From assembly GCA_040400605.1 (NCBI GenBank), contig JBBAPZ010000006.1:97524-161523 (forward strand): a DNA stretch of 64,000 nt, given 5' to 3'. The notes beneath the pieces are model-generated. The model did no database searches. It was not told where the DNA came from and worked only from the letters and a program-made list of their open reading frames with translations. Source of the DNA: Candidatus Sericytochromatia bacterium (lineage in GTDB: Bacteria > Cyanobacteriota > Sericytochromatia > S15B-MN24 > JAQBPE01). The position numbers and the translations under genes were made by a program. Positions 15,639 through 40,634 of the stretch are shown one piece after another; position 1 is the first letter of the stretch, and every line of letters starts with the position of its first letter.

Positions 15639-16232
15639 AAGCGTTTCCCTTCAACCTGACACGTCAGCGTATGACCCCAGGTATCACTGATCGTGTTACA
15701 ACGGCAAACAGCACAAACCGATCGCAAAATACCGGGTATTTTATCCCCCTTGTTGCGCCCGCTGCTCGGCTGTTACCCCGAAGCAGCGTGCCAACTGACA
15801 ATCACGGACATTGTACCCCCATCTTGCCAAGTCCCACAGGCTTGCGGGCGCGCTAATCGTCAGGGCGCACACTCAGGAATGATGGATGATATGGCAAGGG
15901 GTCATCTGGTGATACCGTCTCTGGCTCGCGTGAATTCGCAGCAGCCAGGTTCCGGATTTTTTGCATTTGTCACGCAGGTTTTAAACCTGAGTACGTTGCG
16001 TCACGACATAACCAACAGCGTTTGGGAACCAGCCGGTCCAGTCGGCGGATCGTTTGCCAAAGCCGGTCACACCGGTTCAAAATAAACGGGGGCGCAGCAT
16101 CAGGACCGCGCTCACCATCACACCGCGTTGACGCATTTGGTGTTAATGCTCACGTTCCGTCCAGGCTCACGTGAGCGCCAGGCGCGACGCTGGTCGTCAA
16201 GCCGTCGCCAATCAAAAGAAAGGTCCTCCCAC

Positions 16233-17435: not shown

Positions 17436-17838
17436 TTGTTCACCAACTCCATGGCTGGCATCAGCGATCGCCCCACGCGACAGGCGCGCACTGATTGGTT
17501 GTCAAATCAGTGGTTGAAACCGCACCTCAGTGCGTGAATACCTTGCATCTGGTGAACACGTGTTCCACAAAAGCGCTTGCGTCACCGCCTTGAAGTAATT
17601 CTGGCGGTGGCTGCGCGATACGTTGACCCGCGTACTGGTGAATGAAGCTGTCGCTGGCCAAAGAATATCAACAGCGGCTTTGCCAGGATTATTGTTGCCT
17701 CTGCAAACAGACCTGACAAAGCAGCGATGGTCACTATTGAACCCGGCCTGTCCTCCGCCTGGTTCTTTAATACCCTGTCTGGCAAGGCTGTTGGGATCCA
17801 CGGTAGAATGAAAGGGTAAAATCAATCGGAGTTTAACC

Positions 17839-19296
17839 ATGCAGTTGACCTTTAACGAAGCCCTCCTAAGCACGCAAACCGATGCGCTGATTGTGGCTGT
17901 GCGTTCCCACCCATCTCACAGCGATTCGACACTGAATCGCTATCTGCAAACGCTGTTACAAGATGGTACTTTCAGCGGCGCGGTGGATGAAGTCGAAGTC
18001 GTGTACCCGGTGCAAGGCTTGGGATGCAAGCGTGTGATTTTCGTGGGACTGGGCGAGGAAAACGTGACGCCAGCGAGTTGGCGTAAGGCTATCACCGCAG
18101 GCTATCAGCATGTCAAGGACAAGGTTTCAGTGCTTGGCGTGCTGATGCCAAGTGATGCAGACCCAAGCATGCTTGCTGAGTCTACCGTAGAAACAGTGGT
18201 ATCACTCAGCTATCGTTTTCACCCCTATCGTACCCATCCCCCCGAGCCATCCGAAAAAACGCTCACCGAACTGGTATTGCCGTGCGCCGACAAATCAAAC
18301 CCGGCGAACGCAGCGCGCGATGCCCTTGTATTGGCAAATGTGGTCAACCAGGCACGCGACTGGTCCAATCGACCAGGCAACCAACTGACTGTACCGGAGT
18401 TGCTCAAGGCAATTGAATCAGTGTCCAGTGAACACGGTTTGTCCTGCCAGGTGCTGGATGCGGCGGCACTGAAGACTGAGGGTCTGCATTTGCTGCTCGG
18501 TGTCGGCCGTGCCAGCATCCATCAACCGGCGCTGGCGGTGGTAACCTACCAGGGCGCGCCCAACAACGACGCAACCATTGCCTTGGTTGGCAAAGGCCTG
18601 ACCTTTGACACGGGTGGTATCTGCATCAAACCCCGTGCCGGAATGGAAGAGATGAAGAGCGACATGCACGGGGTTGCCACGGTACTTGGTACGCTGGCTG
18701 TTGCCGCCTCACGCAGATTACCGGTTAATCTTGTGGTTGCTATGCCTCTGGCGGAGAACATGCCGGGTGGCAACGCACTCAAGCCGGGGGATATCCTCAA
18801 AGCTTATGACGGTCAAAGCGTTGAGGTCATTGATACGGATGCGGAGGGACGACTGGTTTTAGCGGATGCGATCGCCTGGATCATCCAACACCATCAACCC
18901 GGCATCCTCATCGATGTCGCCACCTTGACGGGTTCAATCATCACCACCTTGGGTTACGAGGCCACCGGTCTGTTCAGCCCGGACGACGCGCTTGCCGAAT
19001 CATTGACGCAAGCAGGCGAACGCACGGGTGAACGCCTGTGGCGCATGCCCATTTGGCCAGCCTACGAAAAACATATCAAAAGCGACATCGCAGACTGGCG
19101 TAACGCCACCCCGATGAAAGGGGATGCCATCGCAGCCGCAGCCTTTTTGAAACAATTCGTTGGCCAAACCCGTTGGGCGCACCTCGACATCGCCGGCCCC
19201 TCCTATTTGCCGGAATCCAAACAGCATCTCCCCAAAGGCTCCACAGGCGTCGGCATTCGGCTCCTCATCGATTGGCTGACCCATCACCACGCATAA
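17839..19296 (+). CDS. pepA: leucyl aminopeptidase (M17 family)
   Basis: VGKGLTFDTGG and NTDAEGRL signature motifs. GGAG RBS 8 nt upstream of ATG 17839. Confidence 0.9.
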   Translation: MQLTFNEALLSTQTDALIVAVRSHPSHSDSTLNRYLQTLLQDGTFSGAVDEVEVVYPVQGLGCKRVIFVGLGEENVTPASWRKAITAGYQHVKDKVSVLGVLMPSDADPSMLAESTVETVVSLSYRFHPYRTHPPEPSEKTLTELVLPCADKSNPANAARDALVLANVVNQARDWSNRPGNQLTVPELLKAIESVSSEHGLSCQVLDAAALKTEGLHLLLGVGRASIHQPALAVVTYQGAPNNDATIALVGKGLTFDTGGICIKPRAGMEEMKSDMHGVATVLGTLAVAASRRLPVNLVVAMPLAENMPGGNALKPGDILKAYDGQSVEVIDTDAEGRLVLADAIAWIIQHHQPGILIDVATLTGSIITTLGYEATGLFSPDDALAESLTQAGERTGERLWRMPIWPAYEKHIKSDIADWRNATPMKGDAIAAAAFLKQFVGQTRWAHLDIAGPSYLPESKQHLPKGSTGVGIRLLIDWLTHHHA

Positions 19297-23217: not shown

Positions 23218-24345
23218 ATGACCGTGAATGTGGCAGAGAACAAGGGACTTGAAGATGTTGTGGTGGGCCCTTCGAGTATCAGTTCGATCATTGATGATGT
23301 GTTGACTTACAGAGGTTACAGCATCGATGACTTGACCGAGAACGCCAGCTGTTTCGAAGAAATAGTCCATTTGTTGTGGTACGGGCGGTTGCCCGTGCAG
23401 TCGGAGCTCGTTGCGCTCCGCGACGCGATCGTGGCGGGCGCGATCATCCCCGTTCCGGTGCTGGGTTGGATGGCGACGGTGTCACGCGACGCCAACCCGA
23501 TGGATGTGTTGCGGACGGCCGTGTCGATGTTGGGGTTGTACGACCCGCAGCGCGATGAGAACACGGCGGAAGCCAATTTGAGCAAGGCCATTCGTCTGCA
23601 GGGACAGATTGCTGCACTGGTTGCGGCCTTTGAGCGGGTTCGCGAAGGGTTGCAGCCGCTTGATGCAAGACCTGGGGAGACCTTGGCTTGGAACTTTCTG
23701 TATATGATGACTGGCAAGGAGCCGGATGCGTTGTCGGTCAAGGCGTTTGAAAGAGCGCTCATCTTGCACGCCGATCACGAATTTAATGCGTCAACCTTTG
23801 CCGCACGGCAAACGGCTTCGACTTTGTCCGATATGCACTCGGCGATTACGTCGGCTATCGGAACGTTGAAGGGGCCTTTGCATGGGGGTGCCAACACGGC
23901 AGTGATGCAGATGCTTCAGGAGGTGGGCACCGCCGAGAATGCGGAGCCTTGGATCAAGGATGCCTTGGCGAAGAAGAAAAAGATCATGGGTTTTGGGCAT
24001 CGCGTCTATGAAAATGGTGACCCACGTGCCAAGCATTTGCGTGCGATGTCTAAAGAACTGGCGGTTCGAACCGGTGAACCCAAGTGGTATGAAATGTCAA
24101 TCACTATCGATGATGTGGTGAAGCGTGAGAAAGGTCTCTTGACCAACGTCGACTTTTATTCGGCATCCACCTATCATTACTTGGGCATCCCCGGTGATCA
24201 GTTTACCCCGATCTTTGCAGTGAGCCGCCTCTCGGGTTGGGCTGCGCACGTGATGGAGCAACTCGCCAACAATCGGTTGATTCGTCCACGCGCCGAGTAT
24301 ACAGGCCCCGGACACCAAGTCTTCGTACCTATTCAAGCGCGTTGA
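23218..24345 (+). CDS. citrate synthase (short type-I form)
   Basis: GFGHRVY and HADHEFNAST active-site motifs; 375 aa. Confidence 0.9.
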   Translation: MTVNVAENKGLEDVVVGPSSISSIIDDVLTYRGYSIDDLTENASCFEEIVHLLWYGRLPVQSELVALRDAIVAGAIIPVPVLGWMATVSRDANPMDVLRTAVSMLGLYDPQRDENTAEANLSKAIRLQGQIAALVAAFERVREGLQPLDARPGETLAWNFLYMMTGKEPDALSVKAFERALILHADHEFNASTFAARQTASTLSDMHSAITSAIGTLKGPLHGGANTAVMQMLQEVGTAENAEPWIKDALAKKKKIMGFGHRVYENGDPRAKHLRAMSKELAVRTGEPKWYEMSITIDDVVKREKGLLTNVDFYSASTYHYLGIPGDQFTPIFAVSRLSGWAAHVMEQLANNRLIRPRAEYTGPGHQVFVPIQAR

Positions 24346-24358
24346 GGGTTTAACGGGA

Positions 24359-24390
24359 AGCCGGCCTGCTCGAGCAGACCGGCTTTTTTG
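24359..24390 (+). terminator. rho-independent terminator after citrate synthase
   Basis: AGCCGGCCTGCTC/GAGCAGACCGGCT stem followed by TTTTTTG, 14 nt after the stop codon. Confidence 0.6.
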
Positions 24391-24498
24391 TTGGTTGATT
24401 TAATCAAACTTTAGGTTGTTGTTAATACGGTTTGGTTGGCAGCATTCGATAATGATGATGGTGCCGGGGAGTATAACTAAACGAGCAGGGTTGTGTGA

Positions 24499-25530
24499 AT
24501 GTTGCAATTTTTGCGCCAGTATACGTGTCCGACGCGAGTGCAGGGTGCTTGGTTTTTGTTTGTGGTACTGATGGCGATCGGGTGTGGCAAGGCGCCGGTC
24601 GGTTCCACGGTCCTGCCGCAGGATCCGCCGCGATCGTCACTCAAACGTGTGGGAACGAGTGGTCTGACGCGTTTTCTTGCGCGTAACATTCGTTATCGGG
24701 TTGATCGCAACATTGCGCTCACGGTGCACGACCTGAACGCGGACCTGTTGCTGAAAGACACCAGCCAGCCATTCAACCCCTCAAACAAAGTCGGTTACAG
24801 TGTCATGCAACATTACAGCAGCGTTGACGTGGACGGTGAGAGTCTGAGTCACCTGATGAATGATTATGTCTTACGCGATCCCGAATCCCCTCTGCGAGCG
24901 ATCAACATTGTTTTAACCGCTGATCAAATGCGTTTGAGCGGCCAGATGAAGCAGGGATTGTGGGTGCCTTTCGAAATGGAAGGGCGGATTGAGTCCACAC
25001 CAGAGGGACAGATTCGCATGATGCCAACGGTCATCAAGTCGGTGGGCGTACGCGTTGATGGTTTGATGAACCTGTTTGGTATCCGCATCGCCACTTTATT
25101 GCAAAACATGACTGACAATGGCTTGACGTTGAAGGGCAATCAAATTTTGATGGATGTCGGCAAGATGTTTCCGCCGCCACGATTATTGGGTCGTGTCAGT
25201 GTGGCGCGCGTGCAGAACCAGTTGCTTCATATCGAATACAACGATGGTCGGGCACAGCCGTGGCCCAAGTTGCCAATCCCCGATGCGCGAAGCTGCATCG
25301 CGATGTGGGGTGGTGATGTGGTAATCAACAACTGCATCACCATCGACGCCAAATTTCAGATTATGGATATGACACCGCAAACACCCATGGTTTATGCAGC
25401 GGATCGCTACCTCGACGGTCTTGAGGCGGGATTCAACATCCCGACCAAAGATGGACACAACATCTCATACGTTCCCGACATTCTCGATTTTGAGGGCAAA
25501 ATGCCCCGCTACGTCCCCAATCTGCGGTAA
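24499..25530 (+). CDS. hypothetical lipoprotein (lower-GC orphan)
   Basis: Signal peptide plus lipobox FLFVVLMAIGC. 343 aa with no recognisable domain. GC about 50%. Confidence 0.5.
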   Translation: MLQFLRQYTCPTRVQGAWFLFVVLMAIGCGKAPVGSTVLPQDPPRSSLKRVGTSGLTRFLARNIRYRVDRNIALTVHDLNADLLLKDTSQPFNPSNKVGYSVMQHYSSVDVDGESLSHLMNDYVLRDPESPLRAINIVLTADQMRLSGQMKQGLWVPFEMEGRIESTPEGQIRMMPTVIKSVGVRVDGLMNLFGIRIATLLQNMTDNGLTLKGNQILMDVGKMFPPPRLLGRVSVARVQNQLLHIEYNDGRAQPWPKLPIPDARSCIAMWGGDVVINNCITIDAKFQIMDMTPQTPMVYAADRYLDGLEAGFNIPTKDGHNISYVPDILDFEGKMPRYVPNLR

Positions 25531-25554
25531 GCACCGCTTAAGGATGGGTTTCAC

Positions 25555-26157
25555 TCAAAGTGTCCGCAAAAGTCTTGCCGGCACGCCGGCAATGATCGAG
25601 CCGCCTGGAAACGAGCGGTTGACCACGGCGTGAGCGCCTACGATACAGTTATCCCCAAGTTCCACCCCTTTCAGGATGCTGACGCCTGCCCCCACCCACA
25701 CGTTTCGTCCGAGGCGTATCGGTGCGACCGTGTAGCCGGTCTTGCGATAGGGAATCGGTTGCGCCGCGGTCGGATGATCGTGATCACGGATTGGTATCCG
25801 ATGATCGTGATCACGGAGCGGTATCCGATGATCGTGATCACGAATGGAAACGCGTTCTGCGAGTAGACAGTCGTCGCCGATGATGATGTTATCCATCGCG
25901 CTAATGATCGAAAATGGGCCAATATGCACGTGTTGGCCCACGATCAGCTGACCTTCGACTTTCAATTCCGTATGATGACGCAAATGAACGTGTGCGCCGA
26001 TCCGCAGCACGGCCCCTTGTGAGATTCTCCAAATGAGATCGTGTTCCAAGCGATACGGAGCGTCAAGCTTCAGACCCGGATGGCGGCGTGAGAGCTCAGC
26101 CATTGACCATGTCTGATGCAACTTGGACCAGATATGGCGCAAACGCAAATTGCTCAT
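25555..26157 (-). CDS. hexapeptide-repeat (left-handed beta-helix) acetyltransferase, WcaF/maltose-O-acetyltransferase-like, carrying a His/Asp-rich repeat insertion
   Basis: C-terminal hexapeptide repeats IRLGRNVWVGAGVSILKGVELGDNCIVGAHAVV. The internal SIRDHDHRIPLRDHDHRIPIRDHDHP segment is encoded by a 27-bp tandem repeat. Confidence 0.75.
   Translation of the reverse strand: MSNLRLRHIWSKLHQTWSMAELSRRHPGLKLDAPYRLEHDLIWRISQGAVLRIGAHVHLRHHTELKVEGQLIVGQHVHIGPFSIISAMDNIIIGDDCLLAERVSIRDHDHRIPLRDHDHRIPIRDHDHPTAAQPIPYRKTGYTVAPIRLGRNVWVGAGVSILKGVELGDNCIVGAHAVVNRSFPGGSIIAGVPARLLRTL
25774..25846. repeat. in-frame 27-bp tandem repeat (~2.7 copies) inside the acetyltransferase gene
   Basis: The units are atgatcgtgatcacggattggtatccg, atgatcgtgatcacggagcggtatccg and a truncated atgatcgtgatcacgaatg, read directly from the sequence. 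Confidence 0.85.
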
Positions 26158-26326
26158 CGGGTTTCACTCCTCGTCACCGGGTAAAGGAACTTGATGCAAA
26201 CGGCTGCTTGCGACGGACGCCTATCGCATCCTTAAAACCTGAAATGCTTGTGGGGTGCCTGTGTGACGTCAAGACGCCGGCCGATTTGTCTCGCAGTCCA
26301 AGGTTGTTCGCCTGCCAGACGGAAAG

Positions 26327-27568
26327 TCATTGGTTTAACGGGCGATTGGCGGTTCGGTTGCGGGCGGGCGGATTGTTGAACAATTGTTCATAAGCCAGCC
26401 ACGTGCGTTCGGTCATGGCGCTGAGACTCAGGTGTTCACAGACCTTGCGTCTGGCGGCACGACCAAGTGCGGCGCCGAGTTGCGGATACAACAGCAATGT
26501 GCGAAGCGCCTCAAAAAGTGGTTCAGGATGAACACGGGGGATGAGGTAGGAATCATTCAGGTGCGAGAGAATTTCCGGTACCCCGCCTGAGGCGCATGCC
26601 ACAATTGCACGACTGGCGGCCATGGCTTCAAGGTAAACCAATCCGAGCGGTTCGAAACGGGAGGGCGCGACAAAAACATCACTTGCAGCGTACCAATCGT
26701 GGATCCGTGCGTGAGGGATAAATCCTGTTAAACGGAGCAAGTGAGCGCACCCTGCCTGCCGTGCCAACGTCTCAAATCGGTTTACACAACCAAAATCGCG
26801 CGTCGCGGCACCCGCCAACACGAGGTATACTGAGTGTCCTGCGCCGCTCAGACGCAACCAGGCCTCAACTAACTCGTTAACACCTTTGCGATGTTCCAGG
26901 CGTCCCACAAAAAGCAGGACGACAGCATCCTCGGGAATTCTCAGCCAGGCGCGCACCGCGCCACGATTTCCTGTCCTGAAGACGTCCGCATCAATTCCTG
27001 GCAAGACGACTTGCGACGGTGCGCGCGAGGTGTTGAAGTCGTTTCGTGCAGCGTCAAGCAAAGCTTGGGACTGGGCCAGTATGACGTCAGCTTGATGATA
27101 AGTGTGTCGTTCCATCGCTTCCAGTGCAGCTTGTCCGCGTGCGGGCGCCCGCTGATTCAATCGGCGAATGAGACGGGAATAACCGTGCAAGCGAACGACC
27201 AAAGGCGTTTTGGTAACGGCGGGCAAAAACAGGCCGGCGCCGAGGTAGTCGGGGACTTCGATCAGGTCGAAGGGCCCTTCGTGAGCCTCGATGTGATGGA
27301 TGTGCCGAGCCAATGCCCACGCGAAATTCAACGCGGGCATGACGCAGCCGACACGGCTTAACAGGCGATCGCCACGCACCCGAATGGGGCGATAGGTCAC
27401 CCCCTCCCATTCGAGCGTTTGAGGCTCAGGCGTCATACATCGTGCCAGCACCGTCACGGCGTGGCTCCGTTTTGCAAGACCCCTGGCCAAGTCATTCACA
27501 AAGGTGCCAATGCCGCCGTGAACCCCATGGGCGGGGGCTTCCGTCGTTACGAGGCCGATACGAACCAT
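26327..27568 (-). CDS. GT4-family glycosyltransferase
   Basis: Start MVRIGLVTTE (ATG 27568). The C-terminal EPLGLVYLEAMAASRAIVACASGGVPEIL motif (EX7E-like) is typical of GT-B retaining glycosyltransferases. Overlaps the upstream radical SAM gene end by 22 nt. Confidence 0.8.
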   Translation of the reverse strand: MVRIGLVTTEAPAHGVHGGIGTFVNDLARGLAKRSHAVTVLARCMTPEPQTLEWEGVTYRPIRVRGDRLLSRVGCVMPALNFAWALARHIHHIEAHEGPFDLIEVPDYLGAGLFLPAVTKTPLVVRLHGYSRLIRRLNQRAPARGQAALEAMERHTYHQADVILAQSQALLDAARNDFNTSRAPSQVVLPGIDADVFRTGNRGAVRAWLRIPEDAVVLLFVGRLEHRKGVNELVEAWLRLSGAGHSVYLVLAGAATRDFGCVNRFETLARQAGCAHLLRLTGFIPHARIHDWYAASDVFVAPSRFEPLGLVYLEAMAASRAIVACASGGVPEILSHLNDSYLIPRVHPEPLFEALRTLLLYPQLGAALGRAARRKVCEHLSLSAMTERTWLAYEQLFNNPPARNRTANRPLNQ

Positions 27569-29046
27569 GGCGATCGCTTTCGAACCATTCGCCCCCACCA
27601 CGCGGCAAAGACGACCCCGCCACGCAACGCGTATAGGGTTAAGCGGCGCCAAATGCGGCGTACAACTGACACCTGCCGCGTTTCGACCCGTGTCGAATAG
27701 CCAGGTTTGTGCGCCGCCAGTTCGGCACTCACCCAACGTAAGGCCAGGGCCAATTCCCAACGCGCCAGATATTTTGTGCGAACCAGCGCCCGATAGCCGT
27801 TTTGATCCTGAAAGCGTTCGGGTAAATGAAGCAATCCCTCACGCAAAACCTGTTCACGCATCGCCGTCCCTCGATAAGGCGTCATCAACGAGACGCTGTA
27901 CGTACAAGGCAGGTCAGACGCAACGGCCAGGGTGTTCTGGATGGTCGCCCAGGACTCACTGGGGGCCCCGATCATAAAAAATCCTGTCACCTCGATACCC
28001 AAACGCTCACACACGCGCATGTTGGCCAACACCCGCCTCAGTGCGCCTTGATTTTGGCCAACGTCTTTGAGTACCGCTGCGTCGACTGATTCCACACCAG
28101 TTAGAATGCGCTTGACCCCGGCTTGTTGCAAGGTGAACAGATCCGCTTCCTCAAGCGTCTCAAGATCCGTCTCGATATGCCAGACGAAACCCAAATCGGG
28201 TGGCAACAAACGAAACAGCTCAAGCAAATGCCGCTTGCGCCAGGAGATATTGGGATCGCGCGTTTGAATCAAGCGCACACCCAGTTGTTTCAAAGCCAAC
28301 AATTCCTGTCTGACGGACGACACCGAGCGCTGGCGCCAGGCAGCACCTTGATGCACATAATAGGGACACATCGTACAAGCCTTCGGGCATCCTCGGGTCG
28401 TACCCACATAGTGCACCATGTCATCGCGACGGCCAGTGGGTGAATAGGGGGCAGGGTCCACCAAATCCCAGGCGGGGACCGGCAAGGCATCAAGGTCCTC
28501 CAACACGGTCCACGAAGCCGGTGGCGTTCCGTGCTGTGCAAGAACCAAGATTGCCGGATGTGTCGACTGACTGAAGTAAGGCATCACGAGCGCCTCAACT
28601 TCTCCAAACAGCACATCAAAGGTGAAAGGCTGCCCCCATTCGGCCAGGGTGGTCTGGATGCAAGCTCCAAACACGAACACCCGTGCGTTCGGCAGCGCGG
28701 TTGACAAAGACTGGGCCAAGGCAAGATCAGCATCCAGGCTTGGCAAGCTCAATCTTACACCAATCATCTGAGCGTCCAATGAACACACGGCCCGACGCGT
28801 CTGCTCAGCCGTCAAGCCTTGCCCCAAGGCATCGAGCATGGTAACCGCCATACCGGCTTGACGGGCGATCGCACCGGCATACAACCAATCGAGCGGCGGG
28901 GGGGGCAAGGGACGTACCGCACGCTGCAACCAGCCCATCGGGCGTGCAACACCCAACCCACCCGCTTTGTCGCGATCACTCACGTGTCGCTTCAACTCCG
29001 GCGGATTGATCAAACATACCCGACCTCGCTCTAACAACATCGTCAT
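27547..29046 (-). CDS. B12-binding-domain radical SAM protein
   Basis: CX3CX2C cluster motif TRGCPKACTMCPY, with an N-terminal Rossmann-like B12-binding region (VCLINPPE...). ATG at 29046 overlaps the upstream UGDH stop as ATGA. Confidence 0.8.
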   Translation of the reverse strand: MTMLLERGRVCLINPPELKRHVSDRDKAGGLGVARPMGWLQRAVRPLPPPPLDWLYAGAIARQAGMAVTMLDALGQGLTAEQTRRAVCSLDAQMIGVRLSLPSLDADLALAQSLSTALPNARVFVFGACIQTTLAEWGQPFTFDVLFGEVEALVMPYFSQSTHPAILVLAQHGTPPASWTVLEDLDALPVPAWDLVDPAPYSPTGRRDDMVHYVGTTRGCPKACTMCPYYVHQGAAWRQRSVSSVRQELLALKQLGVRLIQTRDPNISWRKRHLLELFRLLPPDLGFVWHIETDLETLEEADLFTLQQAGVKRILTGVESVDAAVLKDVGQNQGALRRVLANMRVCERLGIEVTGFFMIGAPSESWATIQNTLAVASDLPCTYSVSLMTPYRGTAMREQVLREGLLHLPERFQDQNGYRALVRTKYLARWELALALRWVSAELAAHKPGYSTRVETRQVSVVRRIWRRLTLYALRGGVVFAAWWGRMVRKRSPWFVSAS

Positions 29047-30449
29047 GACAAACCACTCCAACCCAAACCCTGATACCACAACCCACTGTCGCGAATCTGC
29101 CTTGCATTCAACGCATTTCGCCCATCCAGCAACAAAAATGGCTCGGTCATCTGCAGCCTCATCCGACCCCAATCAAGTGTCTGAAACTCCGCCCATTCCG
29201 TGACCAACACCAACGCCGCGCACCCGTCCGCAAGCGCATAAGGGCAATCAGTGATTTCAACCGGCGCCATACCGTCCCACTGTGCCTCACGCACCACCGG
29301 ATCATACGCACGCACAACGGCACCCATTCGATGCAACGCCTCAGCAATGCGAATGGCCGGCGCCGCGCGCAAATCATCGGTATCAGGTTTGAAGGCCAGC
29401 CCCATCAGACCGATCCGCTGCCCCTCAAGGCAGGACAAATGCCCAAGCAATTGCCGCGCCACCCAATGCCATTGACGATCATTCACCGCAACGGCTGCCC
29501 CCACGATGTCCGATTCCAAGCCAACCTGTCGCGACATATTCAGCACCGCCTCCAAATCCTTCGGAAAACAACTCCCCCCCCAACCAATCCCGGCATCAAG
29601 AAACGCGGGCCCAATACGTCGGTCCATACCCATCACACGGGCAACAGACCTCACATCCGCCCCCACGCGTTCACATAACAAAGCAAACTCATTGATGAAA
29701 CTGATTTTGGTCGCCAAAAATGCATTGGCCGCATACTTGGCCAGCTCCGCCGACGCACGGTCCAACCACACAATCGGCACCCGATGAAAGACGCCCTCAT
29801 AAGGCACCAGTCCGTTTGCAAACGGTGCGAACAACTCGGCCATCACGACACGCGCCCGCTCACTCTCAACGCCTATTACGATCCGTTCCGCATAAAACGT
29901 ATCAGCAAGCGCACTCCCCTCTCGTAAAAACTCCGGGCAGCTCACCACATCAACCGACACCCGCCCATCATTCACCACCTGGGAATCATCACCCGCATTG
30001 GGCCGCACAGCAGCTGCCTGCGTCATACGCGCCCGAACACCTGCCTCAATCCATTGCGCCACCCTGCCACCGGTTCCAACCGGCACGGTGCTTTTAATCA
30101 CCACCACCGTCGATTCGGACGCATACCAACCCAAATCACGAGCCACAGTCTCCAATGCACCCAAATCAGGCGCACCTGTCGCATCAGCGGGCGTACCCAC
30201 CGCCACCATCGCCACCGCAGCGCCTTGTACAGCCTCTGCGATCCCATCAACAAAACGCAGACGGCCCCGAGCCAGTTCCATTTGCACCAACTCCGTCAAG
30301 CCTGGCTCAAAAAAAGGAACCCGCCCCGACTGAAGCATCACCACACGCTCGCGTTGCGTATCCGTACAAATGACATCATGCCCTGCGTGAGCCAAACACG
30401 CACCAGTCACAAGCCCCACGTAGCCACAACCCACGACACATACCCGCAT
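29043..30449 (-). CDS. UDP-glucose/GDP-mannose 6-dehydrogenase family protein
   Basis: NAD-binding N-terminus MRVCVVGCGYVGLVTG and catalytic region GWGGSCFPKD. ATG 30449 with GGAGG 6 nt upstream. Confidence 0.85.
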   Translation of the reverse strand: MRVCVVGCGYVGLVTGACLAHAGHDVICTDTQRERVVMLQSGRVPFFEPGLTELVQMELARGRLRFVDGIAEAVQGAAVAMVAVGTPADATGAPDLGALETVARDLGWYASESTVVVIKSTVPVGTGGRVAQWIEAGVRARMTQAAAVRPNAGDDSQVVNDGRVSVDVVSCPEFLREGSALADTFYAERIVIGVESERARVVMAELFAPFANGLVPYEGVFHRVPIVWLDRASAELAKYAANAFLATKISFINEFALLCERVGADVRSVARVMGMDRRIGPAFLDAGIGWGGSCFPKDLEAVLNMSRQVGLESDIVGAAVAVNDRQWHWVARQLLGHLSCLEGQRIGLMGLAFKPDTDDLRAAPAIRIAEALHRMGAVVRAYDPVVREAQWDGMAPVEITDCPYALADGCAALVLVTEWAEFQTLDWGRMRLQMTEPFLLLDGRNALNARQIRDSGLWYQGLGWSGLS

Positions 30450-30862
30450 TGCCAGCCTCCATACCGTACCAAGTCGGGCACGCGATTCGCTTCTTCTCAA
30501 GAAACGCAACGCCCCCCGCACAGCCCCCACGCTACCAAAGGCATCGGGAACAAGTGGAGGGTTGCAGGCGACAAAAGTCCTTGGTCAAGCAGACAGGCTC
30601 GTCAAGTGAGCGTGAAACCTGTGGCCAAAAGCGATAGGGAAAAACGTCGATTGGTGGTCAAATTTTAACTGTTGGTTGTATGACAGCGGTTAAGTACTTG
30701 ATGTTATAAACTGACAATAAAAGTCTTGAACAAAAGAGACGCAGCGTTGTATATACCCAAAATCACCCGTTCAATCGCGGCATCAATTTTCTGACCTACC
30801 CCCAGGCCCGACACCAACCACGTCAACAGGGCATTCAGTTATCGACAAACGACACAACTGGG

Positions 30863-31438
30863 TCAATTTGCGGCAGCCGCGCAAGCCAAGATTCGCTTGC
30901 GCACCGCGTCGATCAAGCCATGTAAAGCCTGTTTTTGCAAAAAAGCCACCACAGCAGGCGGAACCGGACCCGGCGGTACAACGTGAACCGCATACGTCAA
31001 ACGAATTCCACCCGGAACCGCCTGAAACACCCATTCACCATCGTTACGACGCAAATCGCCACGTACAGCCTGCCAAACCACCCGATCCGCCTTCAAACAT
31101 CGCCTTGTTACCAATACCATCTGCCAAGGCCCATAACCACCAATCTGCTCAATCACCTGACAATCGTCCTGCGACGCCAAAATCCTCACCGAACGCGCAC
31201 CCGGCATAAACTCCGGAAACTTGGCATGATCCCACAACACCTGACGTGCGCAGGCAAGTGGCGCCTTAAGCACAACATGGGCACAAATCGACGCCCCCTC
31301 TTTCACCGGATGTTCGTGGGTCACAACATAACCCGCATCCAAGTGCCGCAGTTCCTCAGGTGTCAAAACCTCAGCATGGGCCCACCCTGCGATGCCGACA
31401 AGCCAAACGATGACCAATCCGCACAGTAAACGCCTCAT
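30863..31438 (-). CDS. secreted SRPBCC (START/Bet v1-like, polyketide-cyclase-like) family protein
   Basis: Signal peptide MRRLLCGLVIVWLVGIAGWAHA. Size and composition fit the SRPBCC fold; family call is tentative. Confidence 0.5.
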   Translation of the reverse strand: MRRLLCGLVIVWLVGIAGWAHAEVLTPEELRHLDAGYVVTHEHPVKEGASICAHVVLKAPLACARQVLWDHAKFPEFMPGARSVRILASQDDCQVIEQIGGYGPWQMVLVTRRCLKADRVVWQAVRGDLRRNDGEWVFQAVPGGIRLTYAVHVVPPGPVPPAVVAFLQKQALHGLIDAVRKRILACAAAAN

Positions 31439-31623
31439 CAGTCACGATACCGATCCACGTGACGGGTATTCATCACGGCACTGCGAAGCCGCCTGACCCC
31501 CTTGCTGGACCCCTGTAACTTCTTGGCCCGCCGCGGTGCACGCGTAACACGAAAGCGTTGATAATCACGCACGCCCCAAGCAAAGAGCAGAATCAAGACC
31601 ACCGCTTGAATGAGCCCCTTCAT
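31438..31623 (-). CDS. small hypothetical membrane protein (61 aa)
   Basis: One TM helix (LIQAVVLILLFAWGV) then a basic tail. Its stop overlaps the SRPBCC start (ATGA). Confidence 0.3.
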   Translation of the reverse strand: MKGLIQAVVLILLFAWGVRDYQRFRVTRAPRRAKKLQGSSKGVRRLRSAVMNTRHVDRYRD

Positions 31624-31683
31624 CGCCGCCCCCTAACGAATCAGCCGCCTCCACTGAGTGATTTCAGTGTCAGCGGCCGACAA

Positions 31684-31760
31684 TGGTCGGGATGACAGGA
31701 TTCGAACCTGCGACCCCCTCGTCCCGAACGAGGTGCGCTACCAAGCTGCGCTACATCCCG
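31684..31760 (-). tRNA. tRNA-Pro (anticodon CGG)
   Basis: Reverse complement folds as a 77-nt cloverleaf: acceptor CGGGATG/CATCCCG, anticodon loop TTCGGGA, T-loop GGTTCGAATCC, CCA encoded. Confidence 0.85.
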
Positions 31761-31835
31761 ACGATGCTAACACTTTATCACGCAGACAAACCCTTGGCAA
31801 CCTCCCGGCACACCCCCTACGTGACAAACACAACG

Positions 31836-32819
31836 CTATTGCCGCGTGGGCAGCACACCCCTTACACGCACCTTTTGGATAAAAATATCAACGAATTCAG
31901 CATCAAGTTGTGTACCTTTGACGGATTCCAACACCGCAATCGCCTTTTCCATGGGCATGCCATCCCGATAGGGACGATTGGATGTCAACGCATCGAAGGT
32001 ATCGGCAATCGCCGTAATCCGAGCGTTTTTGGGAATCTCACCCCCAGGCAGGCTGTGTGGGTACCCCTGACCGTCAATGCGTTCATGATGCGACAGCACA
32101 ATCGGCAAAATCGGCTCAAGCTCACCAATCTGCTTCAGAATGTTGTATCCCACAGACGGATGAATCTTGATATGGTCATACTCTTCAGCCGTTAAACGTC
32201 CCGGCTTGTTCAAAACCTCTTCCCGCACCGCAATTTTTCCAATGTCGTGCAAAATACCGCCGTGACGCAAGACCTGCAACTCCTCTTGCGAATACCCCAA
32301 CTCCTCGGCAACCCAACAGGCGTACTCCCCAACCCGATGAGAATGCCCGTGCGTGTAAGGGTCCCGCGCCTCAAGCGTTGTCGCCAACGTGTCGATCACG
32401 GTCATCATATTGTCGCGCAGTCGCTTCGAAAGGGCCGCCTTCTCCCGCCGCAAACGCAGATTCGTGATGTTTCGCAGCACGCTATGGATAAAGGTATCGA
32501 CTTCGAAAGGCTTGAAAATGTAGTCGTTGATACCGACCTTGAGCGCGTGAACCGGCGTCTCTTCACTGGCATACCCGGTGATGATGATGCTGCAGATTTC
32601 CGGTTGAAGCTCCTTGATCAACCGAATCGTTTCCACACCATCAATGCCCGGCATGCGCACATCCGAAATCACCATATCAAATTCCTGGGTGCGCGCCATC
32701 TCAACGCCCGCGTAACCATCTTCCGCCAGATAAACCTCAAAATCCTGTTTTTTCAGGATTTTGGCCACCGTGCGGCGAATCAGTTCCTCATCGTCGACTA
32801 CAAGTATTTTCTCTCGCAT
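31836..32819 (-). CDS. response regulator with HD-GYP domain (REC + HD-GYP c-di-GMP phosphodiesterase type)
   Basis: REC N-terminus MREKILVVDDEE...DMVISDVRMPGIDG. The HD-GYP module has HGHSHRV...HDIGK...HHERIDGQGYP. ATG 32819 with GGGGAG upstream. Confidence 0.8.
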   Translation of the reverse strand: MREKILVVDDEELIRRTVAKILKKQDFEVYLAEDGYAGVEMARTQEFDMVISDVRMPGIDGVETIRLIKELQPEICSIIITGYASEETPVHALKVGINDYIFKPFEVDTFIHSVLRNITNLRLRREKAALSKRLRDNMMTVIDTLATTLEARDPYTHGHSHRVGEYACWVAEELGYSQEELQVLRHGGILHDIGKIAVREEVLNKPGRLTAEEYDHIKIHPSVGYNILKQIGELEPILPIVLSHHERIDGQGYPHSLPGGEIPKNARITAIADTFDALTSNRPYRDGMPMEKAIAVLESVKGTQLDAEFVDIFIQKVRVRGVLPTRQ

Positions 32820-32962
32820 GCGGCGTCCGTACTCCCCAAAGGTCTCAGTCATCAGACATCCGTCATATACCCAAGACTTCAAAAAAGCTACACACGCCCG
32901 GTGGCGAAACCGGGATCAACTGCTCAAATGGCCCAAAAATCATTTACCCGCGGACTTTTCGG

Positions 32963-33307
32963 TCAAAAAATGGCAGTCAATGATGCGTCCAGTCGCGCAA
33001 GACAGGCCAATTTTTGCAGGCGGGACAACTGTTTAAAAGCATATTCGGCGCGCAGGGCCACCCGTCGTGAATCAAGCATCCAATAGCCAACGAGGGTCAC
33101 AGGCAAATGGGCGCGGGTATAGTGGCCGCCCTTCCCCTTTTGATGCATCCGCAACCGTTGACGCAAATCACGCGTGTATCCCGTGTAAAGACTGCCATCC
33201 GCACATCGCAAGATGTAAACGACATCGTGCCCGCACAGAGGCAGCCGCGCAGCGTGAACCCATCGTTCGGCTGTCAGCACCGCCAGGGCAGGGTGGCTCG
33301 CCTGCAT
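32963..33307 (-). CDS. GIY-YIG nuclease superfamily protein (UPF0213/YhbQ-like)
   Basis: VYILRCADGSLYTGYTRDLRQRLRMHQKG is a GIY-YIG motif. Its start overlaps the upstream stop (TGATG). Confidence 0.6.
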   Translation of the reverse strand: MQASHPALAVLTAERWVHAARLPLCGHDVVYILRCADGSLYTGYTRDLRQRLRMHQKGKGGHYTRAHLPVTLVGYWMLDSRRVALRAEYAFKQLSRLQKLACLARLDASLTAIF

Positions 33308-35379
33308 CAAATCGACTGCATCCACGGGCGCAAGTGACCACCGGATTGCGTCAACAGCCTATCCGCAGTCACGGCATCCACGCCTTGCTGATGCATCACC
33401 ACCGCACGCTTGACCGAGCCCCCCGCTGTATCAAGGAGGCGTTGGCTGGATGAATCATCTTCACGGGTCAGTTGTGCAACAAGACGCCGTGCCCGTTGAC
33501 GCAATTTCTGATTCGAACACTGCACATCCACCATCAAATTGTCGTAAACCTTGCCCAATTGCACCATGGTCAAGGTTGTGATCATATTCAAGACCATCTT
33601 GGTTGCCGAACCCGCTTTCAGGCGCGTGGAACCTGCGACAATCTCCGGCCCGACAGGGAGAACCAAGACGTGATCGGGCACAAAGGGGGTCGCGTGTGGC
33701 TGGTTGCAGGTTAGCAGCACCGTTGCTGCTTCAGCTGCGCGTGCCGCCGCGAGGGCCCCCCAGACATACTGTGCGTGTCCGTTGGCACTGATTCCGACGA
33801 CGATGTCGTGAAGCCCAACCGTTAAAGCGTTGACATCCGCCGCGCCAGCCGACGCGTCATCCTCAGCGCCTTCGATGGCATGTCGCAGGGCGCGATCGCC
33901 CCCCGCAACAATGCCTTGCACCTGCCACTGCGGCACTGAAAAAGTCGGGTAACACTCGGATGCATCCAGCACGCCAAGGCGACCGCTCGTGCCAGCCCCA
34001 ACATAAATCAGGCGCCCCCCGTCACGCAGGCGTGCAACGGTATCGTCAATCACTGCAGCGATCGCCTCCGTGGCGGTGTCAATCGCCCGTAACACGTCGT
34101 AGTCCTGCGAATGCATCACCTGGACCGCGCTGCGGGTGTTCAGGCGATCCAGTCCGGAACTGACCGGATTGGACGCCTCCGTCAACAACTGGGCTGTCCC
34201 TGCCACAACACCTGCCAGTACCCCGCGCCCCCAATTGTTTCCAGGCACGATTTGACCCAAAACCGCTGAGTGCGAGGCACCGGTCACGTGCGGCAATTGG
34301 TTGATTTGGCCGTGAACGGCCTGGTACGCCAAAATGGCGAAAGCGAACGCTTCTTTGTGATCGGCGTTGATCCCCAACTCATCACTGACACACACCCGAC
34401 ACTCGGGCAAAACCTTGACCAGCGAATCAAGCAACGCCGGGTTCCTTGCACCACCACCGGACACCCACACGGTTCGCGGAAACTGCCCTGCAGGCAAAAA
34501 CCGACGGTATTGATCAGCCACACACGCAGCCGTGTAAGCCGTCGCAGTCGCTATCAAATCAACTCCCCAAACGCCCATTCCCTCAGCCTGATGCTTCAAT
34601 CGTTCGACGAACGCCGCGCCATAACGCTCGCGCCCCGTCGACTTGGGCAACGGCTGCCGTAAATAATCATCCGCGGCCAACCAAACAGACAGCAGTTCGT
34701 CTTGAACGCGCCCGGCCTTGGCAAGCAAACCGCCATCATCCCAGCGTTGCGCGCCACCGCTGAAATCTTCCACCAAGGCATCAATGACCATGCAACCGGG
34801 ACCCGTATCGAAAGCCAGCACCTTGGCTGGATCACCATCGGCACTCAAACAGGTCACATTGCCGATGCCGCCGAAATTCTGCATCGCCATCGATTCACCT
34901 GAGCGCCCCCAACACAGCCAATCGACATAGGGTACCAAGGGCGCACCCTGTCCTTGGCGCGCCACATCACCGACTCGAAACTCACCCACCGTGGTGATCC
35001 CGGTGCGCGCCGCGATAACGGCAGGTTCACCCAGTTGAAACGTGAATGCTTCCGGCCCGCACGGCTGGTGCCAGACCGTTTGTCCCGCCACGCCAATGAG
35101 ATCGATTTGTTCCGGACGCAACCCGCGCTCACTTAAAAATCGCAGGACCAAATCAGCCCAATGTTCACCCAACGCGACATCCAAGCCCGCGACCTCAGCG
35201 ACACTGGCGAGGCCTGTTCGATAAAGCGCTGCGATGCGCGCGCGCAAGGACTCAGGCAAAGACCAGGTTGCAGCATCCAACAATTGTGCCTGCAACCGGG
35301 TCCCCCAACCCTGAATATCCACCAAAGCCACGTCACAACCATCAAGCGACGTGCCGGACATCAAGCCAATCACCCACAT
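33307..35379 (-). CDS. bifunctional fusion: anhydro-N-acetylmuramic acid kinase (AnmK, N-terminal) + N-acetylmuramic acid-6-phosphate etherase (MurQ, C-terminal SIS domain)
   Basis: N-terminus MWVIGLMSGTSLDGCDVALVD...PKSTGRE matches AnmK. The C-terminal half, GRLIYVGAGTSGRLGVLDASECYPTF...GSTRLKAGSATKMVLNMITT...GKVYDNLMVDV, matches MurQ. It is a single uninterrupted 690-aa frame. Confidence 0.8.
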   Translation of the reverse strand: MWVIGLMSGTSLDGCDVALVDIQGWGTRLQAQLLDAATWSLPESLRARIAALYRTGLASVAEVAGLDVALGEHWADLVLRFLSERGLRPEQIDLIGVAGQTVWHQPCGPEAFTFQLGEPAVIAARTGITTVGEFRVGDVARQGQGAPLVPYVDWLCWGRSGESMAMQNFGGIGNVTCLSADGDPAKVLAFDTGPGCMVIDALVEDFSGGAQRWDDGGLLAKAGRVQDELLSVWLAADDYLRQPLPKSTGRERYGAAFVERLKHQAEGMGVWGVDLIATATAYTAACVADQYRRFLPAGQFPRTVWVSGGGARNPALLDSLVKVLPECRVCVSDELGINADHKEAFAFAILAYQAVHGQINQLPHVTGASHSAVLGQIVPGNNWGRGVLAGVVAGTAQLLTEASNPVSSGLDRLNTRSAVQVMHSQDYDVLRAIDTATEAIAAVIDDTVARLRDGGRLIYVGAGTSGRLGVLDASECYPTFSVPQWQVQGIVAGGDRALRHAIEGAEDDASAGAADVNALTVGLHDIVVGISANGHAQYVWGALAAARAAEAATVLLTCNQPHATPFVPDHVLVLPVGPEIVAGSTRLKAGSATKMVLNMITTLTMVQLGKVYDNLMVDVQCSNQKLRQRARRLVAQLTREDDSSSQRLLDTAGGSVKRAVVMHQQGVDAVTADRLLTQSGGHLRPWMQSI

Positions 35380-35487
35380 CGTGAAATCCCCCCACGGCGC
35401 ACCGGACACGTGGCCACTTCCGCCCATATCGTGTACATTGAACCATAAACGACATGACGCAAACCAGATTATGACCGTGTAAACAAG

Positions 35488-37086
35488 TTGTCGAAACGAA
35501 TTGCCCCATCTCTTCTAAGCAGCCGTGAACTCATTGGGCAACTGATGATGCCCATGTTGCCTGATACTGCGGACCTGCTGACACCTAAAATCTGGCAAGA
35601 TGTTCTCAACCGACACTCGGCGTTTGGATTCGGTGGCTACATCGTCTTTCGTGGCGACTGGCACAAGACGCCACCTTTGCTGGCCAGTTTGCAAGAACAC
35701 AGCGAGATCCCGCTTGTTTTCGGATCAGACCTTGAGCGCGGTTGCGGACAGCAATTGACGGGCGCAACCGTTTTCCCGATGCAAATGGCCTTGGGTGCCA
35801 CGCGCAACAGCGATCTCGCGTACCAACAAGGGGCCATCACGGCGCTCGAAGCGCGACGGGCGGGCCTCCACTGGATCTTTGCCCCGACATTGGATTTGGT
35901 CACGCGGCCAGACAATCCCATCATCAACGTTCGGGGCCTTGGTGAAAATCCCAGGCTGGTTGGCCGTCTTGGCAGCGCGATCATTTCGGGAATGCAAGAA
36001 CATGGTGCCATTGCCTGTGCCAAACATTTCCCGGGACATGCCGAAACGTCTGATGACTCCCATACACGTTTGCCAACCTTGCATATCTCTCGTCAACGAA
36101 TGGAATGGCATGATCTCGTGCCATTTCGCGATTGCATCCGCGCCGGGCTTCAATCGATCATGGTCGGTCATTTGGCCGTACCAGCGCTGGATGATACGGG
36201 TATGCCAGCATCATTGTCGCGGCGCATCGTGACGGACTTGTTGCGTGAACAGATGAATTTTGACGGACTCATCGTGACGGATGCGCTGGATATGGGGGCC
36301 ATCACAGCCCGCTTTGACCCGGGGCAGGCGGCCGTTCGGGCCTTGCAGGCAGGCGTGGATGTCTTGTTGATGCCCCCTGACCCGGAGGCCGTCGTCAGCG
36401 CCGTCTTGCTTGCACTCGAAGAAGGGGTGTTAAGCAGGCGCGGCCTGCTTGACTCGGTCGAACGCCTTGATCGGGCGCGTTTGCAGCTCGGACTGTACAG
36501 TTCCGACGGTGACGACGACCTGTTACCTGTGGCGCACTGGCCCGATTACACTCCGGCTGTCCAGGACATCGCCACGCACGCAATCACACTGGTTCACAGT
36601 GAGGAAGACACCGTGCCGTTGCGTGGTAGCGTGGCTGCAATCGCACTGGATGACGACAATGATCCGACAGTCACAGACACTTGGGTGCGGGCCTTGGAAA
36701 GTCGGCACGGGGTCAGTTGCGCGGTTTTGGATAGCCAAGCCACGCCAGAGGCGATCAACGACGCCCTCGAACAGGCCAGTCAGAGCGAGACGGTGGTGGT
36801 GGGCGTTTTTTCAGCCGTCCGGGCGTGGAAGAATCGTGTGACTTTGGTGAAGCATCTGGATGACGTCGGCCGGCGATTATCTGCCTTGGCCTGCAAACGA
36901 CGTGTGGTCGTCTCTTTCAGTTCTCCGTTCATGGCTCAAGACTGGGCGGGCATTGATGCCTACATCTGCGCGTATTCGCCGCATCCGCTGTGTCAATTGG
37001 CCGCACTGGACTGCTTGTGGGGATTGGCACCCTTCAAAGGTCACCTGCCGGTGACGTTGGATAACGATGCGGCCAGGTCGCTGTAA
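35488..37086 (+). CDS. nagZ: beta-N-acetylhexosaminidase (GH3, NagZ-like)
   Basis: GH3 motifs KHFPGHAETSDDSH and GLIVTDALDMGA. Divergent from the AnmK-MurQ gene. Confidence 0.85.
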   Translation: MSKRIAPSLLSSRELIGQLMMPMLPDTADLLTPKIWQDVLNRHSAFGFGGYIVFRGDWHKTPPLLASLQEHSEIPLVFGSDLERGCGQQLTGATVFPMQMALGATRNSDLAYQQGAITALEARRAGLHWIFAPTLDLVTRPDNPIINVRGLGENPRLVGRLGSAIISGMQEHGAIACAKHFPGHAETSDDSHTRLPTLHISRQRMEWHDLVPFRDCIRAGLQSIMVGHLAVPALDDTGMPASLSRRIVTDLLREQMNFDGLIVTDALDMGAITARFDPGQAAVRALQAGVDVLLMPPDPEAVVSAVLLALEEGVLSRRGLLDSVERLDRARLQLGLYSSDGDDDLLPVAHWPDYTPAVQDIATHAITLVHSEEDTVPLRGSVAAIALDDDNDPTVTDTWVRALESRHGVSCAVLDSQATPEAINDALEQASQSETVVVGVFSAVRAWKNRVTLVKHLDDVGRRLSALACKRRVVVSFSSPFMAQDWAGIDAYICAYSPHPLCQLAALDCLWGLAPFKGHLPVTLDNDAARSL

Positions 37087-40276: not shown

Positions 40277-40634
40277 GATCCCCCTCACACCGTCACCCCC
40301 CAGTGTGCCAATCCTTGGTTGGGCGTCAAACAGACCCCAACGCATCTATCCGATAACTCATCACCAAGCTTGCCTCCATCTATTTAAGGTCCGATTAAAA
40401 CCTGTAAAAATTCTGACACACAGCACCGGGTAAAGACGGCGCAGCGAGCGCAAAACACAGATCGCAAGCGACGTTATCCCAGTTGTGTCTGTGTTGTTTG
40501 CCCTGTGAGATATGGGGCCTGGTTCCATTCATTCGGGCGTGGCGCCAGACGCGGGTCAAGATACCCAAGCGTCCGCGCAAAGTCGCTGTTTGTTGCCGTT
40601 GGAGCAGGGTGGAAACGATCACCACCGGTGCGGT

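Follow-up and report, generated by a model that had tools for sequence, protein, structure and literature searches.

An AprD4-like radical SAM enzyme in a candidate Wzx-type glycan cassette of Sericytochromatia

What does a radical S-adenosylmethionine (SAM) enzyme with a B12-binding-like domain do in a sugar gene cassette? The question is raised by a locus on a stretch of DNA of 64,000 nucleotides (nt; the window, contig JBBAPZ010000006.1) from a Candidatus Sericytochromatia bacterium, Sericytochromatia being the non-photosynthetic sister class of cyanobacteria. The radical SAM enzyme (rSAM) is encoded here together with a UDP-glucose 6-dehydrogenase (UGDH), a glycosyltransferase of family GT4 and a hexapeptide acetyltransferase (AcT). 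A preliminary description of the sequence had taken rSAM for a cobalamin-dependent enzyme and had predicted an unusual C-methylated sugar. The best classification of the locus is that of a glycan cassette of the Wzx type in which the radical tailoring enzyme is AprD4-like and unprecedented, and not that of a B12 methylase locus. We assign a probability of roughly 55% to the reading that rSAM carries out a non-methylating sugar modification of the AprD4/HpnJ type within a Wzx-dependent glycan pathway.

The four cassette genes all lie on the minus strand of the window, to which all coordinates refer, and the features of the locus are as follows.

30450 to 30862, minus strand: upstream intergenic region of 413 nt, the largest non-coding gap in the locus and presumed promoter region
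30449 (ATG) to 29043 (TGA), minus strand: UGDH, 468 aa, first cassette gene (Pfam/NCBIfam)
29046 (ATG) to 27547 (TAA), minus strand: AprD4-like rSAM, 499 aa (Pfam, profile search, Foldseek)
27568 (ATG) to 26327 (TGA), minus strand: GT4, a retaining glycosyltransferase of GT-B fold, 413 aa (Pfam)
26158 to 26326, minus strand: intergenic gap of 169 nt between GT4 and AcT, with no counterpart in the relatives checked
26157 (ATG) to 25555 (TGA), minus strand: AcT, O-acetyltransferase-like, left-handed beta-helix, 200 aa (Pfam Hexapep)
25773 to 25842, minus strand: in-frame tandem repeat of 27 nt and 2.6 copies in AcT (Tandem Repeats Finder, TRF)
25531 to 25554, no strand: 24-nt junction between AcT and a lipoprotein gene, the position of Wzx in orthologous cassettes (synteny)

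Read from the sequence, UGDH and rSAM overlap in an ATGA (29046-29043), and rSAM and GT4 overlap by 22 nt (27547-27568). These overlaps, the strand of the four genes and the CX3CX2C motif of rSAM were as the preliminary description had given them, and its domain identities for UGDH, radical SAM, GT4 and hexapeptide acetyltransferase agree with Pfam and NCBIfam, the B12-binding match being sub-threshold. Its statement that the genes run together holds for the first three, whereas GT4 and AcT are separated by the 169-nt gap and AcT has its own Shine-Dalgarno sequence (GAGGAG, 9 nt before ATG 26157). A GGAGG Shine-Dalgarno sequence also stands ahead of the UGDH start codon. The 413-nt region upstream of UGDH is AT-rich in part, and no consensus sigma-70 promoter was found in it; a promoter and terminator scan of 25300-31700 gave counts not above shuffled controls, and the same was true of the GT4/AcT gap. 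An Rfam scan of 24000-33000 at E ≤ 1 returned a tRNA as sole match, with neither a cobalamin riboswitch nor other riboswitches found. Four metagenome contigs that were assembled independently (L001-L004) encode the four cassette proteins with 100% identity, so the cassette is not an assembly artefact. Housekeeping functions make up the remainder of the window, in which other glycan-assembly genes were not found.

rSAM consists of an N-terminal Rossmann-like, 'B12-binding-like' domain and a radical SAM core, the latter passing the Pfam model Radical_SAM (PF04055; 58.2 bits against a gathering score of 29.5). It holds a single cluster motif, TRGCPKACTMCPY, of the form CX3CX2C. In an alignment of 16 family members C220-x3-C224-x2-C227 is invariant, and because these three cluster ligands are the only invariant cysteines, an auxiliary Fe-S cluster is not expected; a BtrN-type SPASM/twitch sugar dehydrogenase was ruled out on this ground. 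No curated NCBIfam cut-off is reached by rSAM. The best match is AprD4 (NF033070), with 102.6 bits over residues 8-440 and thus below the equivalog cut-off of 500, and the second is HpnJ (TIGR03471), with 97.8 bits over residues 215-417 and a cut-off of 577.6. AprD4 is a radical SAM 1,2-diol dehydratase that acts on the sugar ring of paromamine and has AprD3 as its reductase partner (PMC5461906), and for HpnJ a contraction of the glucosamine ring on a glycosylated hopanoid, after the glycosyltransferase step, has been proposed (PMC9204698).

The relation to AprD4 extends over the whole protein. A family profile was built from the 16 members, the window protein included, and searched against all PDB sequences. 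The top match was the AprD4 structure 6FD2 (E = 1.4e-47, 165 bits), aligned end to end (profile positions 3-457 with chain residues 8-451), followed by 9CCB (MgmA) with 65 bits, 6WTE (TsrM) with 43 bits and 7KDX (TokK) with 38 bits. In Foldseek, an AlphaFold2 model of rSAM (pLDDT 87.9) likewise matched 6FD2 best (E = 6e-26, TM 0.73/0.80), and then the cobalamin enzymes TsrM, OxsB, CysS and TokK (E = 1e-11 to 1e-15, TM ~0.6). Identity to AprD4 is 26% overall, and 44 of the 71 family columns that are conserved at ≥90% are identical in AprD4. An insertion between beta1 and alpha1, PP..(S/T)xRDxxGG(L/Y)G...PPxD (R-x4-GG-L-G), is common to the family, AprD4 and uncharacterised intermediates and is absent from generic B12-binding radical SAM enzymes. 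Three family-invariant arginines, R98, R218 and R423, are His, Phe and His in AprD4, the substrate of which is polycationic; the arginines appear compatible with an anionic substrate, i.e., a uronate or a nucleotide or polyprenyl diphosphate. The family furthermore has a C-terminal tail of ~40 residues that is strongly basic, predicted to be helical and absent from AprD4. A transmembrane anchor in this C-terminus was ruled out, as no segment shows a Kyte-Doolittle value typical of membrane helices. Judged by sequence comparison, AprD4 is the only full-length characterised relative of rSAM, the nearest one and not a close one.

Of the partners of rSAM, UGDH has all three UDPG_MGDP_dh Pfam domains and the catalytic-Cys motif GGSCFPKD, and passes the model of NDP-sugar dehydrogenases (TIGR03026; 388 bits, cut-off 190). 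Its best equivalog is TuaD at 415 bits; since the cut-off of 700 is missed, the substrate specificity is inferred and not proven. Among solved structures, UGDH is closest to genuine UDP-Glc dehydrogenases (4A7P, 342 bits, and BceC, 2Y0C-E). GT4 scores above the gathering scores of both Glyco_transf_4 (71.6 bits) and Glycos_transf_1 (105.5 bits) and passes no equivalog, with MshA, GlgA_Coryne and EpsE at 106-118 bits and weak matches also to TuaC, Mgs, GlcN-PG synthase and IagA; the solved structures related to it are those of generic GT4 enzymes. AcT matches Hexapep with 59.8 bits against a gathering score of 27. WbbJ is its best equivalog (90 bits against a cut-off of 243), the closest solved structures are O-acetyltransferases for galactoside, maltose and polysialic acid, and a SIRDHDH motif is common to all orthologues.

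Homologues of rSAM at 42-54% identity come almost all from metagenome-assembled genomes labelled Sericytochromatia or 'Cyanobacteria bacterium'. A locus scan with one genome per species gave 36 loci, in which neighbours were mapped by tblastn. GT4 directly follows rSAM in 14 of 14 Sericytochromatia-type loci and UGDH directly precedes it in 11 of the 14, a conservation that bears out the glycoconjugate locus of the preliminary description as a genuine, evolutionarily conserved cassette. In all 11 Sericytochromatia-type loci with enough flank, GT4 is followed by AcT and then by a flippase of the Wzx/MurJ superfamily (Wzx; ~500 aa, Pfam Polysacc_synt/MurJ). The cassette was found in no fewer than two unrelated genomic settings, which argues that it is a functional unit.

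Four of these loci (L018, L019, L020 and L035) have two further genes after the cassette Wzx, both on the opposite strand. They encode a phosphoglycosyl transferase that resembles PglC (EPS_sugtrans, 259 bits) and an aminotransferase that resembles PglE/PseC, with a PglF/PseB-like membrane dehydratase further on in L019, L020 and L035; L018 ends earlier. This PglC/PglE/PglF-like module, at 14868-18547 (minus strand) in L019, converges on Wzx and suggests a 4-amino-4,6-dideoxy-N-acetylhexosamine as the first lipid-linked sugar. A locus from Chlorobiota (L022) has the order AcT-rSAM-GT4-GT2-Wzy_C-Wzx, and an alphaproteobacterial one (L028) has a WbaP-like transferase directly upstream. The association with Wzx, phosphoglycosyl transferases and Wzy places the rSAM family in the assembly of polyprenyl-diphosphate-linked, Wzx-dependent glycans. 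The preliminary description had noted that no flippase is adjacent and had left the acceptor open. The former is true of the window, but orthologous cassettes end in Wzx; as to the latter, Wzx and the PglF/E/C-like modules of the relatives point to a polyprenyl-diphosphate-linked acceptor.

The pairing of GT4 with rSAM reaches beyond this class. Of 22 outgroup loci, which come from Armatimonadota (Chthonomonadaceae), Chloroflexota, Myxococcota and others, 19 have a GT4 gene ahead of rSAM in the same orientation, at a distance of 46-279 nt. One protein, P0124 (1040 aa), is a natural GT4::rSAM fusion, the rSAM half of which is 32% identical to the window rSAM over its full length and scores 483 bits with the family profile. 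In more distant relatives the fusion partner is a GT2 (P0180, P0197) or an epimerase/dehydratase domain of the short-chain dehydrogenase/reductase type (P0253). The latter fusion recalls, by analogy, the dehydratase and reductase logic of AprD4/AprD3. GT4 and rSAM are the conserved core. A second radical SAM protein, of 371-394 aa and with a SPASM domain, adjoins the AprD4-like enzyme in 12 outgroup loci, in 11 of which a GT4/rSAM/SPASM-rSAM triad is found. This partner belongs to no curated family and, in loci of Armatimonadota and Myxococcota, stands after the AprD4-like enzyme (L031, 8680-12752; L040, 8689-12826) or before it (L029, 2040-4783). Separately, P0180 was seen to carry tetratricopeptide repeats besides GT2 and rSAM, and the representative search also returned very large multi-domain proteins (1,800-2,600 aa) in which rSAM-like stretches occur several times.

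Against this background the cassette of the window has features of its own. In L005, L009, L012 and L013, Wzx lies between AcT and a conserved lipoprotein gene, and in L014 it follows AcT at a distance of ~3.4 kb from the lipoprotein gene. In the window, AcT abuts the lipoprotein gene (24499-25530), with the 24 nt of 25531-25554 between them, and a search of the 64 kb with six orthologous Wzx proteins (tblastn, E ≤ 10) found no remnant or paralogue and returned noise only. The repeat in AcT (period 27, 95% matches) encodes RDHDHRIPL RDHDHRIPI RDHDHP and triplicates the conserved RDHDH motif, which is present in a single copy in all orthologues. GT4 and AcT overlap in the relatives checked (L005, L006-L008), unlike in the window with its 169-nt gap. 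Four loci (L009, L012, L013 and L014) share macro-synteny with the window in the order LytR-CpsA-Psr, GH3, AnmK-MurQ, response regulator, SRPBCC and cassette, continuing to lipoprotein, citrate synthase, MerR and ClpB as far as the contigs extend; L005 shows it only from SRPBCC onwards. Identity to orthologues is 36-60% for the cassette proteins of the window, compared to 91-97% for ClpB and 74-79% for citrate synthase. UGDH of the window shows 47-50% identity to every orthologue, compared to 60-89% among the orthologues themselves, and this divergence gap exceeds that of the flanking housekeeping genes. The comparison suggests an accelerated divergence or a replacement of the cassette allele. 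As all four open reading frames (ORFs) are intact and every family-invariant residue of rSAM is kept, the cassette is probably still functional in this genome, with its distal end remodelled.

Three other explanations of the locus were weighed against the favoured one. The one put forward in the preliminary description makes rSAM a cobalamin-dependent class B methyltransferase and its product a C-methylated, acetylated uronic-acid glycoconjugate. A Rossmann-like N-domain with a radical SAM core is indeed class B architecture, and sugar C-methylases of this class are known from reviews, i.e., GenK, GenD1 and MoeK5 (PMC12931638, PMC9204698). rSAM also gives a weak match of 28.7 bits to the Pfam B12-binding model PF02310, for which a match is precomputed for about two thirds of the family members. 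However, 28.7 bits fall short of the gathering score of 32.1, DUF4070 was not found in rSAM at E ≤ 0.01 with Pfam and no other class B accessory domain was detected. Curated models of B12 methylases (PhpK, Sden_1168, HpnR, RiPP C-methyltransferase, MCR Gln methylase and TsrM type) give 15-63 bits, their cut-offs being 282-650; with the family profile, solved B12 methylases reach 38-43 bits as compared to 165 bits for AprD4, and for the predicted structure their fold match is ten orders of magnitude weaker than that of AprD4. In B12 domains the loop that follows beta1 faces the cofactor; in rSAM this loop holds the AprD4-type insertion. There is no cobalamin riboswitch in the scanned surroundings. 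AprD4 itself appears in B12-rSAM similarity networks and yet does not bind cobalamin, as stated in a 2026 review (PMC12931638). In the HMM searches, rSAM fell neither into the DUF4070/B12-rSAM methyltransferase clade nor with BchE or HpnP; its nearest characterised relatives are AprD4 and HpnJ, and both of these landmarks are non-methylating enzymes of sugar rings. A C-methylated sugar is an unlikely product, and we regard the methylase explanation as improbable overall. The broader idea of an unusual, radical-modified sugar emerges strengthened, C-methylation specifically does not, and an annotation as 'B12-binding radical SAM' should not be taken to mean a methylase.

A different view would let rSAM rearrange, in the manner of HpnJ, the glycosyl headgroup that GT4 has attached to a membrane lipid, e.g., by ring contraction to a cyclitol or carbasugar, so that a modified glycolipid such as a derivative of a glucuronic acid (GlcA)-lipid would be made rather than a polysaccharide unit. 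On the rSAM core HpnJ reaches 98 bits, near AprD4, and in some intermediate relatives it ranks above AprD4; its own proposed substrate is a lipid already glycosylated by a glycosyltransferase (PMC9204698). The cassette has a single glycosyltransferase, GT4 enzymes include glycolipid synthases (cf. the weak matches to Mgs, GlcN-PG synthase and IagA), and the basic, predicted-helical tail of rSAM could bind membranes. On the other hand, the HpnJ match covers residues 215-417 only and lies far under the 578-bit cut-off, no transmembrane segment is predicted in rSAM, neither hopanoid nor other lipid-synthesis genes were found in the window, and the Wzx, PglC-like, WbaP-like and Wzy proteins of the relatives go with polyprenyl-linked glycans. 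Membership in a hopanoid pathway was ruled out, there being no hopanoid gene context, and a glycolipid product of this kind is in our estimation unlikely. Little weight, too, is given to the view that the cassette of this particular genome is a decaying remnant without exported product. Wzx is cleanly absent where syntenic relatives hold one, the 2.6-copy repeat triplicates RDHDH, the GT4/AcT gap is unique to the window and the cassette proteins have diverged far more than the flanking ClpB. Against decay stand the full-length, intact ORFs, the retention of every family-invariant rSAM residue, the in-frame AcT repeat and the preserved translational coupling of the first three genes; the proteins are moreover identical in four independent samples, and a flippase could be encoded outside the 64 kb.

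Returning to a non-methylating modification within a Wzx-dependent pathway, the four genes would be the surviving core of a five-gene cassette of UGDH, AprD4-like rSAM, GT4, O-acetyltransferase and Wzx, which may contribute a single modified sugar to a surface glycan that is linked to polyprenyl diphosphate, translocated by Wzx and of exopolysaccharide, O-antigen or cell-wall-polysaccharide type. UGDH, by its family assignment, would provide UDP-glucuronic acid, and GT4 would move a sugar, probably GlcA, onto the lipid-linked acceptor. rSAM is predicted to cleave SAM reductively at its single [4Fe-4S] cluster, upon which the 5'-deoxyadenosyl radical would take a ring hydrogen; by analogy with AprD4, a vicinal hydroxyl would then most likely be eliminated to give a keto-deoxy or deoxy sugar, cobalamin-free and without methyl transfer. 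The hexapeptide transferase would O-acetylate the unit and, in the relatives, Wzx would flip it. In the genome studied here, with Wzx deleted and AcT repeat-expanded, the distal pathway may be served from elsewhere in the genome or be decaying. Dehydration or deoxygenation as the specific reaction is drawn from the AprD4 analogy, and we propose it tentatively, as clearly less than an even chance overall.

Several observations weigh against this proposal. The substrate of rSAM may be a nucleotide sugar or a lipid-linked glycan, the order of the steps is tentative, the cobalamin independence of rSAM is itself deduced from homology, and an AprD3-type reductase was found neither in the cassette nor in the 64-kb window, from which Wzx, a phosphoglycosyl transferase and a polymerase are likewise missing. 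L020, L021 and L035 as well as outgroup loci have no adjacent UGDH, so a uronic acid would not be obligatory for rSAM. AprD4 is a distant relative (26% identity, 103 bits against the equivalog cut-off of 500), and HpnJ, with its proposed ring contraction and presumed use of cobalamin, scores nearly as high on the rSAM core. An exhaustive profile search gave ~17 cluster representatives above 400 bits and then a continuous tail, amounting to 8,579 proteins at E ≤ 1e-30. Thousands of uncharacterised proteins are nearer to the rSAM family than AprD4 is, and none of ten sampled intermediates between the family and AprD4 passes any NCBIfam cut-off; the function of rSAM may therefore have changed along the way.

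If the proposal is true, AprD4-like chemistry would extend to primary envelope biogenesis, and an unusual, undescribed sugar is predicted in organisms for which we know of no isolate or glycan structure. No AprD4 homologue in a polysaccharide or cell-envelope locus, and no such cassette, was found in the literature, including papers that mention AprD4. A more general notion, namely that AprD4-like rSAMs form a widespread class of cobalamin-free sugar dehydratases or rearrangases that act, with a sometimes fused GT4, on a lipid-linked glycan intermediate, is put forward as a rather doubtful extension. Were it true, Sericytochromatia, Armatimonadota, Chloroflexota and Myxococcota would have a novel, radical way of making the deoxy or keto sugars of their primary envelope polysaccharides. 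It would differ from the routes by nucleotide-sugar 4,6-dehydratases and by E1/E3, and AprD4-type chemistry would for the first time be seen beyond the aminoglycoside antibiotics. The cassette is small and self-contained, and with the L019-type version, which includes the initiating module, a heterologous reconstruction is feasible.

Turning to the neighbouring genes of the window, a cell-wall recycling and attachment cluster lies ~2-7 kb from the cassette.

33307 to 35427, minus strand: AnmK-MurQ fusion
35488 to 37086, plus strand: GH3 hydrolase
37177 to 38463, plus strand: LytR-CpsA-Psr ligase

The AnmK-MurQ fusion (706 aa), which joins an anhydro-MurNAc kinase to a MurNAc-6-P etherase, adjoins the NagZ-like GH3 hydrolase and the ligase. 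AnmK-MurQ and GH3 are conserved in L009, L012, L013 and L014; the ligase could be detected in L013 alone, where it stands at the sequence edge. In principle, a LytR-CpsA-Psr ligase could couple a polyprenyl-linked glycan to peptidoglycan. The predicted lipoprotein at 24499-25530 (plus strand, 343 aa, lipobox AIGCGK, no Pfam/NCBIfam family) is a conserved cassette neighbour at 47-50% identity in the L005-type synteny group; an extension of its gene past the stop codon was ruled out, the match to the L005 orthologue there being a low-similarity tail. The gene immediately upstream of the cassette, at 30863-31438 (minus strand), encodes a secreted protein of the SRPBCC type (Polyketide_cyc) that has a signal peptide. 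It is kept at this place in L005, L009, L012 and L013; in L014 it is inverted, and the L006-type context lacks it. Upstream of this gene and of a 61-aa ORF follows a tRNA gene at 31687-31760 (minus strand; Rfam, 65.7 bits). A UvrC-like ORF of 886 aa at 40512-43172 (plus strand) has its GIY-YIG domain from residue 291, which reflects either an N-terminal extension of ~280 aa or a predicted start too far upstream.

How, then, does the cassette compare with known systems? With Pgl-type Wzx pathways (PglF/PglE/PglC) it shares the flippase and the PglC-, PglE- and PglF-like proteins that its relatives add, and with teichuronic-acid-type units (TuaD/TuaC) the TuaD affinity of UGDH and the weak TuaC match of GT4. 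It differs in that no known Wzx/Pgl-type pathway with an AprD4-like radical SAM tailoring enzyme was found in the literature, and in that flippase, initiating transferase and polymerase were not found in the window. The class B methyltransferases (TsrM, TokK, CysS, GenK, Fom3, HpnP/HpnR) resemble rSAM in having a Rossmann-like N-domain ahead of a partial TIM-barrel radical SAM core, and are set apart by scores of 38-63 bits, a TM of ~0.6 and the AprD4-type beta1-alpha1 insertion of rSAM. HpnJ is classed as cobalamin-dependent, and hopanoid genes were not found near the window rSAM. The partner glycosyltransferase here is a GT4, whereas HpnI, the glycosyltransferase of the hopanoid pathway, is a GT2. 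Common to HpnJ and rSAM would be a two-domain, non-methylating radical SAM enzyme working on a lipid-attached sugar after a glycosyltransferase (PMC9204698).

From AprD4, rSAM is distinguished by its canonical CX3CX2C cluster motif, which is CX3CX3C in AprD4, and by the additional basic C-terminal extension of ~40 residues. The contexts differ as well, the rSAM family being found in a cell-envelope glycan cassette with Wzx and AprD4 in a secondary-metabolite cluster; an AprD3-type reductase partner and an aminoglycoside cluster accompany AprD4 and were not found here. What the two share is a homology over the full length that includes the N-terminal Rossmann-like domain, the best fold match, the R-x4-GGLG insertion after beta1 together with the motifs PPxD, SLPSLxxD, RDP and GxESxD, a single Fe-S cluster motif and a setting of sugar chemistry.

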